The notes under the pieces are model-generated. The model did no database searches. It was not told the DNA's origin and saw only the letters and a list, made by a program, of their open reading frames with translations. The position numbers and the translations under genes were made by a program. Shown here piece after piece: positions 1-51,759 of a DNA stretch of 64,000 nucleotides; the stretch's first letter is position 1, and each line of letters begins with the position of its first letter. Source of the DNA: Escherichia phage vB_EcoM_IME537; the sequence record NC_054921.1, one strand, 5' to 3'.

Positions 1-1365
1 GGAGCTAGTACTAAGTATGGAAGCGATGGGTCAATGAATAGACCAACTGTTTCTGTGTTTAAAAATGTCGAGGTTCTCGACGAAAATGTAGGAATTCTTA
101 AAACTGCCATTGAAACATCTCAGGAAGATATTAAAACCATTCAAGGCATTTTAGATGTATCAGGAGATATAGAAGCGCTATCACAGATCAGTGTTAATAA
201 AAATGATATATCAAATTTAAAGACACTCACGAATGAACATACTGATATATTAAATGGTACAAATACTACGGTTGATAATATTCTTTCTGATATTGGTCCA
301 TTTAATTCGCAAGCAAATTCAGTTTATAGAACGATTAGAAATGATTTGTTATGGATTAAAAGGGAATTAGGACAATATGCTGGGCAAGACATTAATGGTC
401 TTCCTGTTGTAGGAAATAGCAGCACGGGTATGAAGCACCGCATCATTAATAATACAGATGCTATAACTTCCCAAGGAATACGTCTAAGTGATTTGGAAGA
501 AAAATTTATTGAATCTGATGTAGGTTCACTGACAATTGAAGTCGGAAATCTTAGACAAGAACTTGGACAAAGACCATCTTCATTCAGTGAAAGCATATAT
601 TCACGTGTGCATAATTTAGATCAATCTCAAATTAATCTTAGTTCCGAAATTAAATCTATCAAAACTTCTATTGGATATCCAGGAAATACTTCAATAATCA
701 CAGATGTTAACACTAATACACGAGAAGTTTCAGCTTTAAATGATGAACTAAATAAAAGCGGAGGTATTAAACAACGATTGACTGTCATTGAAACGTCAAT
801 TGGCTCAGATGATATTCCTTCTAGTATTAAAGGTAGAATTAAAGATAATACAACATCTATTGAGTTTTTAAATGGAATTGTTGGTGAAAACACTTCATCT
901 GGACTACGAGCAAATGTTTCATGGCTAAACCAAATCGTTGGAACTGATTCTAGTGGAGGTCAGCCTTCTCCTCCTGGGTCTCTTTTAAATAGGGTTTCAA
1001 CTATTGAAACCTCTGTTAATAGATTGAACAATGATGTTCAAAACTTACAAGTTGAAATTGGTAATAACACTACTGGAATTAAAGGCCAAGTTGTTGCACT
1101 AAATAAACTAGTAAGCGGCACAAATCCAAATGGTTCAACAGTAGAAGAGCGCGGATTAACTAATTCAATAAAAGCTAATGAAACTAACATTTCTTCTATT
1201 AATCAAGAAATGCGTAGTATTAAAAGTAATGTATCTTCATTACAGGGGGATGTTCAGACTTTACAGGAAGCAGGTTATATTCCTGAAGCTCCAAAGGATG
1301 GTCAAGCTTACGTTCGTAAAGACGGCGAATGGGTATTACTTTCTACCTTTTTATCACCAGCATAA
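1..1365 (+). CDS. wac: Fibritin (whisker/neck fibre), 5' partial; reading frame is open to position 1
   Basis: C-terminal foldon [30 protein letters not shown]; coiled-coil heptads; sits upstream of gene 13 as in T4. Confidence 0.93.
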
Positions 1366-1368
1366 CAT

Positions 1369-1384
1369 GGGGCCGCAAGGCCCC
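1369..1384 (+). terminator. GC hairpin GGGGCC-GCAA-GGCCCC after wac (no strong T-run; stabiliser or weak terminator)
   Basis: perfect 6-bp inverted repeat with GNRA-type loop, seen directly. Confidence 0.4.
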
Positions 1385-1396
1385 AAAGGATTTTAA

Positions 1397-3098
<1,702 letters not shown>

Positions 3099-3139
3099 TA
3101 AATATTATAAACTAATTAAAGCTCAGATTAGGAGAAATC

Positions 3140-6280
<3,141 letters not shown>

Positions 6281-45271: not shown

Positions 45272-46441
45272 TTAAAAATATTTTTTAAAACTCATCATAA
45301 CTTTATCATCAACATCATTATCAATCTGTGCTACAAGGTAAGATGACAGTTCTACTTCTTGCGGCGCGGATTGAACATTATCAGAATTAAGGTATTCACG
45401 AATCCAAGGATACGGATGTTTAACCGGAGCATCGGTAATTGGGCATGGAAGACCGCACTGTTTCATACGAGATACAGTTAAGTAATCAATAAAGCTCCAC
45501 ATGCTATTTGTATTTAATCCAGGAACATCGCCATCTTTAAATAAATGAACTGCCCAGTCTTTTTCTTGGCGGTTAACTTCCATGAAAATATCAACTGCTT
45601 CTTGTTCACACTCTTGAGCAATTTTAACCCATTCATCACCATCAGTGCCAAGTTGAAGTTGACGAATAATATATTGGGTGCCTTTAAGATGAAGCTGCTC
45701 ATCACGCGCAATGAACTTCATAATCTTGGCATTACCTTCCATGATTTCCATGTTCTTATGGAAGTTAAAGGTACATGCGAAAGATACGTAAAAACGAATA
45801 GCTTCCAATGCATTGATTACATGCAAGCAGAGGTAAAGAGATTTCATTAATGCTCGTTTAGTACATTCAACAACTTTGCCTAACTCTTCTTTACGAAATC
45901 CTTCTGATAAAATTCCTTCATAATCTTCAACCGCGTTTTGGTATTCACGAGTCTTAACTAGAACATCATCGTAATAGCGACCAATGGACTCGGCACGTTT
46001 CATAATAGCTTTATCTAATACAATCTCATCAAATACCTTTGATGGGTCAGTATAAAGATTTCGCATGATATGAGTATATGAACGACTGTGAATAGTTTCA
46101 CTAAAAGTCCATGTAGCAACCCATGTATCAAGACTTGGATCTGAAATTAATGACATAAGTACTGCAGACGGTGCACGACCCTGAATGCTATCTAGAAGTG
46201 ATTGATACTTCAGGTTATTAGTAAAAATATCTTGCTGATACTGAGGAAGCTTGTTAAATTGTGCAGCATCCATCATTAAGTTTACTTCTTCAGGACGCCA
46301 GAAAAATGATAAAGATTTCTCTGTAAGTTCTTCAAATACTCGATGCCGTTGAATATCATAACGCGCAATACCAAGACCTGAACCAAAAAACATAGGTTCT
46401 TTTAAAACATCAACTGGATTTGTATTAAAAACTGTAGACAT
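45272..46441 (-). CDS. nrdB: Ribonucleotide reductase small subunit NrdB, intronless
   Basis: 389 aa from ATG 46441 (MSTVFNTNP...); single continuous ORF. Confidence 0.93.
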   Translation of the reverse strand: MSTVFNTNPVDVLKEPMFFGSGLGIARYDIQRHRVFEELTEKSLSFFWRPEEVNLMMDAAQFNKLPQYQQDIFTNNLKYQSLLDSIQGRAPSAVLMSLISDPSLDTWVATWTFSETIHSRSYTHIMRNLYTDPSKVFDEIVLDKAIMKRAESIGRYYDDVLVKTREYQNAVEDYEGILSEGFRKEELGKVVECTKRALMKSLYLCLHVINALEAIRFYVSFACTFNFHKNMEIMEGNAKIMKFIARDEQLHLKGTQYIIRQLQLGTDGDEWVKIAQECEQEAVDIFMEVNRQEKDWAVHLFKDGDVPGLNTNSMWSFIDYLTVSRMKQCGLPCPITDAPVKHPYPWIREYLNSDNVQSAPQEVELSSYLVAQIDNDVDDKVMMSFKKYF

Positions 46442-47172
46442 TAATTTTTCCTCTTTAAAATTCTGCCGTGTTTCCAACCTGGCGGTATAATATCATCTTT
46501 ACCTATAAGCGTGCATTCACTTCCATTATTAATCCATTTCTTACCGCGGATTCCTTTATAATCTCTTGGTTTTATTTTGTCAAACTTTGCATCAAGTTGA
46601 TATGACCATCTAAATCCATAAGCATATTGAAATTTACCCTCGGCACAATATTTGATATTTGACCCGTTTCCATTAACTGACCGGGACGCTGCCGCAATAG
46701 AGTGAAAGGTTTCTATGAAATCCCCATCTAATGAGAATTTATGTATTTCTACAGATGGGCACGCATATCTATTCACGTTAGATACATGCTGTTTAGTTTC
46801 GTTTTTATGATGCTTGCCTAGCATCCCTTTAGGATGAGGATTATTTTTCCAATATTTCTTAAAGAACTCAGAATTAGCTTTAGCAAATAATTTTCTGTGT
46901 AAGCTGTACAATCTGTTATTAATTCTATTGCCAGCTTTATCTGTTGCCATTAACGTTAACGCAGAGGCAAGACCAAAATGGCCTTCATTTATCTTACATA
47001 GTAATAGATGAGCTATAAAATGTTCTCTGGCTGTTAATTCAACTAAATTTTCCTTATCATCAGAACCTCCCATACATTTAGGGATTATATGATGTGTCTC
47101 TTTATATTCTAGTAAAGATTCCCGAGCCTGAGCTCGGGAAATTAGGTCGTTATAGATTTTTTGATAATTCAT
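46441..47172 (-). mobile_element. mobE: Free-standing HNH homing endonuclease (mobE position between nrdA and nrdB)
   Basis: 243 aa; HNH motif ETHHIIPKCMGGSDDKENLVELTAREHFIAH; TAATG overlaps at both ends. Confidence 0.8.
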
Positions 47173-48161
47173 TACAATTTACACGCTGCGCAATCATCGG
47201 CTTTTGGAGTTTCTATTTCATAATCATCAGTACCGGAACCATCACGAGTATTATGATAATAGAAGTTTTTAATGCCATAATACCATCCGTATAGCATGTC
47301 ATCAATCATTACAGACATTGGAACTTTTCCTTTTGGAAAAATCTGCGGGTCATAATATGTATTTGCTGAAGCTGATTGACATACCCATTTCAGCATAATA
47401 GCTACTTGCGTAAGATAAGGTTTATTACCTTTTTTAGCTAATTTCCACGTATAATCATACAGGTCTATGTTATGCTCAATATTGGGCACGACTTGATTAA
47501 AGGAGCCCTCTTTTGATTCTTTAACAGAGACTGGTCCACGTGGAGGCTCGATACCGTTTGTACTGTTAGAAACTTGGGAAGATGACTCACATGGCATAAG
47601 TGCTGATAATGTGCTATTACGGATGCCAAAGAGCTTAAGGTCTTCCCGCAGCGACGACCAGTCACAAACGTATTTTGGAGCTGCGATTTGGTCAATCTTT
47701 TTATTGTACCAGTCGATAGGTAATTCGCCTCGAGACCAACGGGTGTCTGAATAATATTCGCAAGGTCCTTTTTCTTTGGCGAGCTTAATGGATGCTTTAA
47801 TGAGTCCATACTGTAATCTCTCAAATAGTTCATGTGTTAAATCGTTAGCATCTTCATAAGAAGCAAAATTACTTGCCAGCCAAGCTGCATAGTTAGTAAC
47901 ACCTACGCCAAGGTTTCGACGCTTTTTAGCTTTTTCTGCTTCAGGAACTGGATATCCTTGGTAATCCAAAAGATTATCAAGAGCACGAACTTGGACTTCT
48001 GCCAATTCATTAATTTTATCTTGGTCTTGCCAATCGAAGTTATCTAACACAAATGCAGATAACGTGCAGAGGCCCACTTCACCTTTGTTTTCAATAACTT
48101 GTATTGTTGTATACTCATCATCTTCGTAAAATTCATCTACAAATTCATAATCAATATTCAT
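47172..48161 (-). CDS. nrdA: NrdA C-terminal piece (carries GLCTLSAF and the C-terminal YY...CAAC tail)
   Basis: 329 aa; begins with a 23-aa acidic non-conserved head, then the conserved class I large-subunit sequence. Confidence 0.88.
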   Translation of the reverse strand: MNIDYEFVDEFYEDDEYTTIQVIENKGEVGLCTLSAFVLDNFDWQDQDKINELAEVQVRALDNLLDYQGYPVPEAEKAKKRRNLGVGVTNYAAWLASNFASYEDANDLTHELFERLQYGLIKASIKLAKEKGPCEYYSDTRWSRGELPIDWYNKKIDQIAAPKYVCDWSSLREDLKLFGIRNSTLSALMPCESSSQVSNSTNGIEPPRGPVSVKESKEGSFNQVVPNIEHNIDLYDYTWKLAKKGNKPYLTQVAIMLKWVCQSASANTYYDPQIFPKGKVPMSVMIDDMLYGWYYGIKNFYYHNTRDGSGTDDYEIETPKADDCAACKL

Positions 48162-48861
48162 TTAATTCTTCTACCTTTTTTCGAGATATTCCTAGAGCTT
48201 TAGATGCTCGATGTATTGATTGATATTCTATACCGTTTATTTTTACAGCAATTAAGTTATGGGGTTTTAATCCCTTTGGATGAGGTTTACTGACGTATTC
48301 TTGATTATCGTTTTCAGAGATATTATCAAGCTTTCGACACTTAAAGCCTTTATGTTGAGACCTTTTGCCTTTGCATACGGCCGACATTGCCGAAGCATTG
48401 AGTGAATGTAGTTCGCAAAATTCTCTTAGGCCTTTATGGATTTCTTCATGACCGTCCGGGAAAGTAAATACCCAAGTTGTTTGAAGTTTTTCTCTATGCT
48501 CGTCAGTTACCGGAATACCTTTGTTCCAAGCTGGTTTGCCTTTATTATTTTCAGATACAGAAATAGCCAATTTTCTTCTAAGCCACCCATGGCGTTTATT
48601 GGTGTTCTTTCGTTCAATATTATCTTCAGAATAAACACACATCATATTAGCGGCAAATACCAATTTATGATTATCTGGATATATCTTTACTAATAATTGA
48701 TGAGCTATGTAATGCTCTTCGGGTGTCAAATCTACCAGGTTTTCCTTTGTATCAGAACCACCAATACACAGAGGTATAATATGGTGTGATTCGGTATAGC
48801 AATCTAATTTTCTGTTCTTAGCTTTAGAAATAAGGTTATTGTAAATTTTAGAATAATCCAT
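48151..48861 (-). mobile_element. Second HNH homing endonuclease (mobE paralogue) inserted inside nrdA
   Basis: 236 aa; HNH motif ESHHIIPLCIGGSDTKENLVDLTPEEHYIAH; own RBS AAGAGGAAAA; C-terminal HTH-like RASKALGISRKKVEEL. Confidence 0.85.
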
Positions 48862-48906
48862 AACTTTTCCTCTTGTTATGGATTATTTATTAACGGTCTG
48901 TGTACT

Positions 48907-50340
48907 TTATTTGCTTTGAATTATACCGCCAGGATTAGCTTCATAAAACTTAGCTACATCCGACTTCTTAATTTTGATTAAACGGGTTTGTTGGCTATTG
49001 ACATCATTAGTTGGAATAGCAATTTCACAACACAAGTTGCTCTGACGAATAGGTGCCTTTTCGCGAATAAACGGAGTATAGTTATTCGTATTATCAATGA
49101 ACTGCACATAAATCCTTGCTGTTCCTGATCGTTCAGTCATGAGCAATTCAAACAGTTCACGGGCTTTAATACGCTTTTTACGAATATTAGGGTCTTTTTC
49201 TGCGGCTTCATATAATTCACGGAAACGGTCTTGGTCTTTAAAATAAGAATAATAAAGCTCGCCACCCATTTCGTGTGGACTGAACAAAGTAATGTAGTCG
49301 TTCTTTCCGAATCGTTCCATCATTAGGTCATTCAGCTGGACACCATAATCCATATGGCGGATACGGTTTTCTTCTACACCTTTGTTATTTTTCAAAACGA
49401 GAAGATTTTCAACTTCCAAATGCCAAATAGGATAATAAGCAGTAGCAGCACCGCCACGAATTCCGCCCTGTGAACATGATTTAACAGCAGTCTGAAAATG
49501 TTTCCAAAAAGGAATAACACCAGTATGGCGTACTTCACCTGTGCCAATCTTAGAACCTTCGGCACGAATCATACCAACGTTAATGCCGATTCCAGCTCGC
49601 TTGGAGATATATTCAACAATTGAAGCAGAAGCTTTGTTGATAGACTTCAGCGAATCACCTGCCTCAATAACAACGCATGAACTAAACTGTCGAGTTGGAG
49701 TACGACATCCAGCCATAATAGGAGTTGGCAATGAAATCTGTCGAGTGGATACTGCTTCATAAAAACGGATAACGTGTTTTAATCTATCAACAGGTTCATC
49801 TTGATGCAATGCCATTCCAATAGTCATAAACGCAAACTGTGGAGTTTCATAAATTTGACCAGTGGTTTTATCTTTAACGAGATATTTTTCTTTTAATTGC
49901 ATCGCCCCGGAATAAGTAAATTCCATATCCCGCTCATGCTTAATTTTTGATTCTAAAAATGTAATTTCTTCTGCTGAATATTTTGACAGCAGTTCAGGGT
50001 CATATTTACCTTCATTTACACAGTAAGAAATATGGTCAATAAATGAACATGGTTCATATTGCCCGTAAACATGCTTACGAAGAGCAAACATTAAACACCG
50101 TGCAGCTACATATTGATAATCAGGCTCTTCAACTGAAATAGAATTCGCAGCAGCCTTAATGACAATAGTCTGAATGTCATCAGTTGTCATTCCATCACGG
50201 AGATATGATTTAATATTTTCATATAATTCATAAGGATCTACAGATGTTCCTTCAGCTGCCCAAGATAAAACTTTAATAATTTTTTGCGGGTCAAAGCTTT
50301 GAGAAACACCACTACTTTTGATAACATTAATTAATTGCAT
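48907..50340 (-). CDS. nrdA: NrdA N-terminal piece (carries the active-site SNLCCEIAIP)
   Basis: 477 aa; MQLINVIKSSGVSQSF...; conserved sequence ends at ...IPTNDVN followed by a 29-aa basic tail and stop. Confidence 0.88.
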   Translation of the reverse strand: MQLINVIKSSGVSQSFDPQKIIKVLSWAAEGTSVDPYELYENIKSYLRDGMTTDDIQTIVIKAAANSISVEEPDYQYVAARCLMFALRKHVYGQYEPCSFIDHISYCVNEGKYDPELLSKYSAEEITFLESKIKHERDMEFTYSGAMQLKEKYLVKDKTTGQIYETPQFAFMTIGMALHQDEPVDRLKHVIRFYEAVSTRQISLPTPIMAGCRTPTRQFSSCVVIEAGDSLKSINKASASIVEYISKRAGIGINVGMIRAEGSKIGTGEVRHTGVIPFWKHFQTAVKSCSQGGIRGGAATAYYPIWHLEVENLLVLKNNKGVEENRIRHMDYGVQLNDLMMERFGKNDYITLFSPHEMGGELYYSYFKDQDRFRELYEAAEKDPNIRKKRIKARELFELLMTERSGTARIYVQFIDNTNNYTPFIREKAPIRQSNLCCEIAIPTNDVNSQQTRLIKIKKSDVAKFYEANPGGIIQSK

Positions 50341-50612
50341 AAGTCCTCAACTTGAAAATCGTCTTTAAACAATCGGTTAACTATATGAGCTATTATATCA
50401 CCATGACACGGCTTTGGTTTACATGTGCATCCTAGCCTCATTCCACGTAAAGGCTCTAAATGTGCTTTAGTTATTTCTCCGGATTTAATTCGACGTATAA
50501 AATCTTTTTTGAATAATTCAATGGCAGCCTCCCGGCTGCCAGCATCTTTACCGACGTAATTTCCCCAAAATGTACCACGGTGAATATTAACATCAAAGTC
50601 GGATTTATATTT
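50331..50612 (-). pseudogene. Conserved-looking ORF region (...GTFWGNY...LGCTCKPKPCHGD...) with no in-frame start; apparently disrupted
   Basis: 93 sense codons directly after the in-frame TAA of the upstream 87-aa ORF; the only nearby ATG (50659) is in another frame across an A5 tract. Confidence 0.5.
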
Positions 50613-50876
50613 TTATTCACTACTTGGCATAGACGGCCCGCGCGGTGATAATTCGTCATATTGTTTTTCCGTTAAAACAGTAATATCATAGTAACAATCA
50701 GAAGAAGTTTTAACCGTAGAAATTTTATTATCAAAATACTCACGAGTCATTTTATGAGTATAATATTTTTTGCCATAAATGATAATAGGCTGATTTGGTC
50801 CTGGAACTTCTAACTCGCTTGGGTTAGGAAGTGTAAAAAGAACTACACCAGAAGTATCTTTAAATCGTAAAATCAT
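50613..50876 (-). CDS. Hypothetical protein (nrdA.x position), in frame with the downstream disrupted region
   Basis: 87 aa ORF. Confidence 0.5.
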
Positions 50877-50899
50877 ATATCCTCACAATTAATAATTAA

Positions 50900-51759
50900 T
50901 TACACCGCCATTTTTCCTTTAATAGGAGGGTGTGATTCGTAACCTTTAAGAACGAAATCTTTAGGCCTGAGTTTAAGAACATATTCCAATTGTTCTTTAG
51001 TAGAAAGATAGCGGAATTTATAAGGCAATCCGCCTATTACCAGTTCACAAAGCTCTTTAGGTTCACGACGTAAAATTTCTTTACACTGTTCTATGTGATT
51101 CATATAGATATGAGTATTACCACCAGAAAATATCAAATCTCCTGGAATAAGATTACACATCTTAGCTACAATATGAACTAATGCAGCATATGATGCAATG
51201 TTGAATGGCAAGCCCAAGAACACGTCAACACTTCTTTGATACCACTGCAAATCCAAATAGCCATTACGCACATTAAACTGATAAAACATATGACAAGGTG
51301 GTAATGCCATATGTTTAAGTTCAGCTGGATTCCATGCTGAAACAATTTGACGCCTATCATTCGGCAGTTTTTTAATACGATCAATAACTTCTACAATTTG
51401 GTCTACACCGCCAAAATCACGCCACTGTTTTCCATAAATTGGACCAAGTTCACCACTATGATATCCTAAATCTTTTGCTTGATTTTCGTAATTTTCATCC
51501 CAGACTGTTTTGCCTTGAATTAATGAATCATGCTGAATTAATCGTAAATCATTTACGTTAGTACTTCCTGACAAAAACCATATTAGCTCAGCAATACAAG
51601 CTTTCCAGGCGAGCTTCTTAGTCGTTACTGCAGGAAAACCTTTAGTTAAATCCCAGCGTAATTTAGTACCGAACAAAGCAATTGTTCCTGTGCCTGTTCG
51701 GTCATCGGTTTCATAACCGTTTTCCAGGATATCTTTAATTAAAAATTGGTATTGTTTCA

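Follow-up and report, generated by a model that had tools for sequence, protein, structure and literature searches.

Escherichia phage vB_EcoM_IME537 (sequence record NC_054921.1) carries the ribonucleotide reductase (RNR) gene nrdA in two pieces. We analysed a window of 64,000 nucleotides from this genome and focused on the point at which nrdA is broken, where the upstream piece (N piece) ends in a basic peptide extension, here called the tail, and the downstream piece (C piece) begins with an acidic one, here called the head. On the minus strand the order is the nrdA N piece, a 45-nt spacer, an open reading frame (ORF) for a homing endonuclease of 236 amino acids (aa), the nrdA C piece, a second endonuclease-like ORF and nrdB (Table 1). 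The 3' end of the endonuclease ORF overlaps the start of the C piece by 11 nt. Its product matches the I-HmuI NUMOD-like Pfam family above cut-off, and the matches to HNH, NUMOD1 and I-TevI DNA-binding domains are weak.

Table 1. Features of the split nrdA locus in vB_EcoM_IME537, in window coordinates.
Feature	Position	Strand	Description
nrdA N piece (NrdA-a equivalent)	48907..50340	-	477 aa; C-terminus ...PTNDVNSQQTRLIKIKKSDVAKFYEANPGGIIQSK (stop)
Basic tail ending the N piece	48910..48993	-	28 aa, QQTRLIKIKKSDVAKFYEANPGGIIQSK, net +4; without counterpart in intact NrdA
Spacer, N piece stop to endonuclease start codon	48862..48906	-	45 nt
RNA hairpin at endonuclease start	48852..48887	-	13 bp; fold z = -4.5, 0/200 shuffles
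Free-standing MobE-like HNH homing endonuclease gene	48151..48861	-	236 aa; 47.6% identical to Aeh1 MobE
Acidic head starting the C piece	48093..48161	-	23 aa, MNIDYEFVDEFYEDDEYTTIQVI, net -8
ENKG, four residues after the head	48081..48092	-	in place of native PDA; aligned with the NrdA family loop
nrdA C piece (NrdA-b equivalent)	47172..48161	-	329 aa; N-terminus MNIDYEFVDEFYEDDEYTTIQVIENKGEVGLCTLSAF
Whole mobile cassette (tail, spacer, endonuclease gene, head)	48081..48993	-	913 bp in place of 9 bp
Second MobE-like HNH endonuclease gene	46441..47172	-	243 aa; canonical mobE position, between nrdA C piece and nrdB

The two pieces together hold the parts of a complete NrdA. As judged from Pfam matches and invariant columns, the N piece contains the ATP cone, the all-alpha domain and the first half of the barrel, with C222, N435, C437 and E439; it matches the ATP-cone, Ribonuc_red_lgN and Ribonuc_red_lgC families, the last over profile positions 1-221. 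The C piece takes up the Ribonuc_red_lgC profile at positions 219-523 and contributes the second half of the barrel, C32 (equivalent to C462 of the E. coli enzyme) and the C-terminal CxxC. When placed on E. coli R1, the N piece maps onto residues 411-455 and the C piece from residue 453. In that numbering the break lies at 454/455, in the interval between the strand bearing C439/E441 and the strand bearing C462, and the active-site cysteines are on two polypeptides.

The closest intact relative, NrdA of Shigella phage SH7 (754 aa), served to delimit the extensions by alignment. Over its residues 1-449 this protein is 99% identical to the N piece, and the match ends at ...PTNDVNS, residue 449. 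The C piece is 99% identical to residues 453-754, identity resuming at its residue E28 (= residue 453), so that the native PDA (450-452) is replaced; in the DNA, the 913 bp of the cassette substitute for the 9 bp CCTGATGCT that code for these residues. A preliminary description of the locus had reported a 29-aa tail with a net charge of about +4 and a 23-aa head with a net charge of about -8. The extensions, the ORFs and the peptide strings quoted for them proved exact, as did the interval 48093..48996, which runs from codon 23 of the C piece through codon 449 of the N piece. Both charges hold (net +4 with an isoelectric point (pI) of 10.0; net -8 with a pI of 4.05), but the tail is 28 aa long, S449 being conserved in intact NrdA. 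The head would measure 27 aa against the closest intact relatives. We consider 23 aa a fair limit because the ENKG that follows it can be aligned to the loop of the NrdA family, with the Pfam barrel profile starting again at C piece residue 24 and ENKG matching E. coli R1 residues 455-457. The extensions had also been called non-conserved, which is correct in relation to intact NrdA but not among split homologues, where they are conserved.

The same arrangement has been described for Aeromonas phage Aeh1, in which mobE splits nrdA into nrdA-a and nrdA-b, with a basic C-terminal tail of pI 10.4 and an acidic N-terminal tail of pI 3.8 (Crona et al. 2011, PMC3045599). In both phages nrdA is broken in the identical loop, the upstream piece ending in a basic tail and the downstream piece starting with an acidic head. 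The dimensions correspond closely, with spacers of 45 nt in the window and 46 nt in Aeh1, endonucleases of 236 and 237 aa, and overlaps with the downstream piece of 11 and 14 nt. The second active-site cysteine is C32 in the window and Cys-31 in Aeh1, where Cys-431 and Cys-31 are likewise on the two pieces (PMC3045599). Between the endonucleases, identity is 47.6% across their full length, in an alignment of 229 aa (E 1e-60). The tails themselves can be aligned, TRLIKIKKSDVAKF in the window with KMLFKVKKSEVDKF in Aeh1 for the N tail and IDYEFVDEFYEDDEYTTIQV with IEHERIYEVYEDEEYTTVEI for the C head, and we scored these alignments by Smith-Waterman (SW) comparison against composition-preserving shuffles (n=5000). 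The head reached SW 64 against the Aeh1 NrdA-b head, whereas the best shuffle gave 54 (0/5000); the N tail reached SW 42 against the NrdA-a tail (1/5000 shuffles), with the homology in its first 16 residues. Because these scores beat the shuffles, we take the window tails to be orthologous to the characterized Aeh1 tails. By the calculation used for the window, the Aeh1 tails carry net charges of +6 and -9.

The two systems also differ. The window NrdA is of T4 type (identity to the two Aeh1 pieces 58% and 49%), its N tail has an unrelated distal third, its hairpin occludes the endonuclease AUG rather than the Shine-Dalgarno sequence, and its genome has a second MobE-like gene at the canonical position between nrdA and nrdB. 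The preliminary description had regarded the split as newly created; this does not stand, the cassette being common to Aeh1 (endonuclease 48% identical) and to a metagenomic phage (67%).

The Aeh1 tails have been characterized biochemically. The mature Aeh1 proteins keep their tails, and deletion of both lowers the specific activity from 946 to 0.4 U/mg, a loss of ~2000-fold (PMC3045599). The tail-less aa/ab heterodimer still forms; it is the dimerization to (aa/ab)2 and the assembly of the holoenzyme that fail (PMC3045599). Crona et al. weighed charge-charge contacts between the tails and found no database matches to them (PMC3045599). A 2022 preprint mentions 'several other Myoviridae' with MobE insertions in nrdA and conserved N- and C-terminal extensions, citing unpublished data (10.1101/2022.08.31.505936). 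Our literature searches found no paper that describes the coliphage tails. Friedrich et al. are said to have published the split nrdA-a/mobE/nrdA-b of Aeh1 and its mechanism earlier, in PNAS in 2007. The mechanism and the charge observation were thus already in print for Aeh1, and the basic idea is not new.

Five tail variants could be compared, those of the window group, L119, L037, Aeh1 and P0001. L037 is a 128-kb metagenomic phage contig (OEQO01000002.1) whose endonuclease is 67% identical to that of the window and whose tails are KKNVLIKIKKSDVLDFYKKHPDGVIRT and MSINYEIVDEFYEDDEYTTLQVI; the L119/P0001 tails are QQTRLIKIKKSDVDQFYKENPNGVIQSR and MNINYEFVDEFYEDEEYTTLQVI. The polarity is kept in all five, with N tails of +4 to +6 and C heads of -7 to -9. 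Beyond charge, the variants share the cores L.K.KKS[DE]V..F in the N tail and YED[DE]EYTT in the head. The invariant positions (L, K, KKS, V and F in the N tail; M, I, E, E, Y, E, D, E, Y, T and T in the head) are hydrophobic and aromatic as well as charged, and the cores are free of indels and stop codons. The final ~12 residues of the N tail vary freely.

We then compared the ratio of nonsynonymous to synonymous substitution rates (dN/dS, Nei-Gojobori) between variants. The samples are small (26-33 codons), and three comparisons agree in giving the tails ratios of 0.11-0.24 at dS 0.4-2 (N tail 0.18-0.23; head 0.11-0.24). The endonuclease, at 0.10-0.12, is similar to the tails, and the NrdA core has 0.03-0.12. 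As judged from these ratios, the tails are under purifying selection, and given the agreement among the three comparisons they are unlikely to be neutral read-through DNA. The tails are, in addition, homologous to those of Aeh1, without which RNR activity is abolished, and by this analogy are very likely functional rather than junk.

The tails move with the endonuclease gene. In the phage collection, 33 phage records out of ~820 with a matching nrdA region have the cassette, and the window comes from a T4-like coliphage whose insertion is 100% identical to that of Escherichia phage HY01, a Tequatrovirus. In seven representative phages the tails are identical or near-identical; this alone is no proof of selection, given how young the entire cassette is in these genomes. 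Comparison between genera is more informative about mobility: between the window, a Tequatrovirus, and the Mosigvirus phages AV111 and ZQ3 there are 0-2 differences in the 913 nt of the cassette, against 10-19 differences per 50 nt in the nrdA that flanks it, which diverges by ~20%, and the boundaries of divergence coincide with the outer ends of both tails. A cassette near-identical across genera within diverged flanks is the signature, as read from these alignments, of a tail, endonuclease gene and head that home as a single unit.

Further searches added little to this distribution. A scan of bacterial genomes returned intact bacterial nrdA only and no bacterial carrier of the head, and scans of IMG/VR returned intact nrdA or Aeh1 itself and nothing else. 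A protein search with a 50-aa head query gave P0001 as its single candidate and was otherwise uninformative. The best 120 matches to the whole N piece were mostly identical intact 754-aa NrdAs, together with two 477-aa split clusters, and among these 120 there was no fused form of ~806 aa. The exact T4 late promoter TATAAATA is absent within the cassette.

A second allele of the endonuclease gene is present in L003 and L007 (fPS-90 and PTE-Eco05), and partly in F2. Over cassette nt 500..750 it differs by ~27% in a block of ~250 nt within the endonuclease gene, and the remaining cassette and both tails are near-identical. The block, which covers the central part of the endonuclease protein, looks like a recombination mosaic.

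Taken together, we consider it highly probable that the extensions are the NrdA-a C-terminal and NrdA-b N-terminal extensions of a MobE-type genes-in-pieces RNR, orthologous to the Aeh1 tails, and that they form a module needed for dimerization, holoenzyme assembly and activity. A free-standing homing endonuclease gene occupies a surface loop between the beta-strand bearing C437/E439 and the strand bearing C32, and supplies a basic 28-aa tail to the upstream fragment and an acidic 23-aa head to the downstream fragment. The two fragments would be translated separately and, as in Aeh1, use the native barrel interface to join. The homology with Aeh1 suggests that the tails act as a specific interaction module whose cores mix hydrophobic contacts with contacts between opposite charges; judging by the residue patterns, each tail may add an amphipathic segment and a short strand (LIKIK; YTTIQVI), and a candidate contact pairs the LIKIKKSDV..F segment of the N tail with the head segment YEDDEYTTIQVI. 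We infer that the tails touch each other and that in coliphages they do what they do in Aeh1. The module would be needed for (aa/ab)2, then for the holoenzyme with NrdB and hence for activity, and the tails would make the insertion phenotypically neutral, leaving the endonuclease cassette free to spread by homing.

Several observations weigh against this interpretation. Conservation with Aeh1 does not extend to the 12 distal residues of the N tail. In an AF2 model of the C piece alone, the core is predicted with a predicted template modelling score of 0.78, but residues 1-26 have predicted local distance difference test values < 50 and are predicted to be disordered, which would fit a segment that depends on its partner for structure. 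The aerobic RNR of T4 is dispensable in the laboratory, and selection on the assembled enzyme may be weaker than we assume; this worry is countered by the low dN/dS of the nrdA pieces themselves (0.03-0.07). Finally, opposite charges are not a universal property of NrdA split at this site, being found in only one of three independent splits of the same loop.

Those three splits, on Logan and ENA metagenome contigs (L118, L120 and L122), carry unrelated tails of 27-50 aa and apparently arose independently. L118 has an ORF of 146 aa between its pieces, of unknown type and with no Pfam match, and both its extensions are acidic (N tail -3, head -6). L122 has a GIY-YIG-like, NUMOD3-rich ORF in this position, with an N tail of -2 and a head of -3. 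In L120 there is no intervening gene, the pieces meeting at a TAAgATG junction, and the N tail (-6) and head (+3) are complementary. Complementary charges are thus a conserved trait of the MobE family, and one split outside it has them too, with the polarity reversed. Within the MobE family we encountered no homologue that lacks the tails or has an unrelated junction sequence; the unrelated tails belong to the three independent splits.

The loop also accepts insertions without being broken. The uninterrupted NrdAs P0139, P0026, P0140, P0063 and P0142 have insertions of 20-70 aa in it, that of P0026 passing from a basic first half (+4) to an acidic second half (-10). We tried these five insertions as re-fused tails or ancestors of the tails and found no significant similarity; P0142 was borderline across the tail junction, at 12/3000 shuffles before correction for 15 tests.

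Given that the tails belong to the inserted cassette and not to nrdA, they might be neutral remains of the insertion that are in frame by chance, with reassembly of the fragments left to the native barrel interface alone. The preliminary description had raised leftover intervening DNA as an equal alternative, and it was right about where the tails come from; this origin does not exclude a function, and the tails are also selected. A neutral origin without function would accord with the formation of the Aeh1 heterodimer in the absence of tails, with the disorder predicted for the head on its own and with the free variation of the distal N tail. We nevertheless regard it as very improbable, since the low dN/dS of the tails is found at near-saturated synonymous divergence, motifs and polarity are kept as far as Aeh1, where the endonuclease is only 48% identical, the conserved cores are without indels or stops, and loss of the Aeh1 tails costs ~2000-fold in activity. 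The preliminary description had also proposed that complementary charges could help the fragments reassemble. That the tails are functional is borne out by the Aeh1 homology, the low dN/dS and the polarity of all five variants; the help with reassembly fares less well, as Aeh1 fragments associate without tails. In its strict form, with the tails as electrostatic zippers whose sole role is to join the two fragments, this account draws on the conserved opposite charges (+4 to +6 against -7 to -9), on the reversed polarity (-6 and +3) of the unrelated split L120 in the same loop and on the charge-charge contacts considered by Crona et al. It would leave unexplained why the tail-less Aeh1 heterodimer forms and is defective in heterodimer dimerization and holoenzyme assembly. 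Hydrophobic and aromatic positions (L, I/V, V and F in the N tail; I, Y, Y and TT in the head) are conserved together with the charged ones, which points to a specific fold rather than bulk charge, and the independent splits L118 and L122 show no complementarity. We think it improbable that joining the fragments is all the tails do.

The last alternative, that the tails are remnants of a split intein or a self-splicing intron and that a continuous NrdA is restored by protein trans-splicing or RNA splicing, was worth considering because nrdA is a frequent target of both elements. Our search of protein-cluster representatives found many other split NrdA C pieces, mostly beginning, at the C439 site, with a C-intein; two inteins interrupt the nrdA of L037, and a degenerate intein was raised as a possible origin by Crona et al. 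The locus itself bears no signature of either. The insertion is imprecise, with 9 nt replaced; the N piece ends in a stop codon of its own and the C piece begins with its own start codon. At 28 and 23 aa the tails are far below the length of two intein halves; the N tail starts with Q, with no Cys or Ser at position 1 and no TxxH, and the head ends in ...QVI, without a terminal HN and followed by E rather than C, S or T. Scored with a hidden Markov model that we built on 11 C-inteins, all taken from split nrdA genes, the heads do not rise above shuffles, and neither piece has a Pfam intein domain, so we rejected a degenerate split intein. A group I intron was rejected on the imprecision of the insertion and on the finding of no Rfam match at E <= 1 in 46000..51000. 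The mature Aeh1 proteins, moreover, retain their tails. Restoration of a continuous protein is, in our estimation, extremely improbable.

Two further known systems can be compared with the MobE-type split. Intein-fractured nrdA genes, which Dassa et al. (2009) assign to split inteins with ligated exteins (PMC2677866), resemble it in having two nrdA ORFs around a homing endonuclease, and their C pieces often start with an acidic segment, the net charges of the C-inteins ranging from -7 to +3. They differ in being split at the C439 codon, with a C-intein fragment that ends in HN and is followed by Cys, whereas the window tails are without intein motifs and their Aeh1 orthologues stay unligated. 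Another parallel is T4 gp39/MobA/gp60, in which a related HNH endonuclease splits the gene of an essential enzyme and both products carry extension tails (Crona 2011 discussion, PMC3045599; 10.1101/2022.08.31.505936). There the gene and the tail sequences are different, and T4 has a gene 60 translational bypass element that is absent in the window.

The hairpin at the endonuclease start is a further shared feature of the cassettes. In the window its 3' arm contains the endonuclease AUG and its loop the GAGG Shine-Dalgarno sequence. Equivalent hairpins with different stem sequences are found in L037 (1778..1812) and in Aeh1 (L035 3157..3205, minus strand), so that in all three diverged cassettes the start codon or the Shine-Dalgarno sequence of the endonuclease is enclosed. 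In Aeh1, RNA structure inhibits MobE expression (PMC3045599, Figure 5 legend); by analogy, the window hairpin probably limits translation of the endonuclease.

The second MobE-like gene of the window (46441..47172) encodes a protein with a NUMOD1 match above cut-off and a weak HNH match, 35% identical to the N-terminal 150 aa of Aeh1 MobE. It is missing from HY01 and from the other closest phages with the cassette, whose matches begin at window position 47176, and present in phages with an intact nrdA such as SH7. The window genome thus combines two related endonuclease genes 1 kb apart.

Inteins occur in the nrdA of two of the sequences compared, L037 and L021. In L037 a single T4-like gene (nrdA 45..3487) has three mobile insertions, namely one intein that follows KSC, another at the active-site Cys (SNLC/LSGDS...VHN/CLEIAIPT, slashes marking the boundaries) and the MobE cassette ~10 codons beyond. 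L021 (IMG/VR UViG 2706796796) has an otherwise intact nrdA with an intein at the C439 position (~2398..2580) that ends ...ILVHN/CAEIAIPT. The native loop of this gene, HAIENKREIGLC, is similar to ENKGEVGLC, the sequence after the window head, and gives a hint of the type of nrdA where the cassette originated.

The joint movement of tails and endonuclease gives direct evidence, at the sequence level, in favour of the view that the insertion brings its own antidote. Aeh1-type tails now have homologues, and the cores defined by the five variants point to a specific structure rather than bulk charge and indicate to experimenters which residues to mutate. The presence of the cassette in ordinary T4-like coliphages makes the genetics of tail swaps and deletions far easier than in Aeh1. 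We offer more tentatively the possibility that the cassette is a self-contained mobile unit with a portable, sequence-specific clasp for rejoining any barrel that it splits, and that the NrdA loop is a general permissive site, with at least four independent splits (the MobE type, L122, L118 and L120), each with its own tails. Reassembly with the help of tails would then be a route that evolution has taken repeatedly and not a single case, and the conserved tails of the MobE type might serve as transferable split-protein tags.

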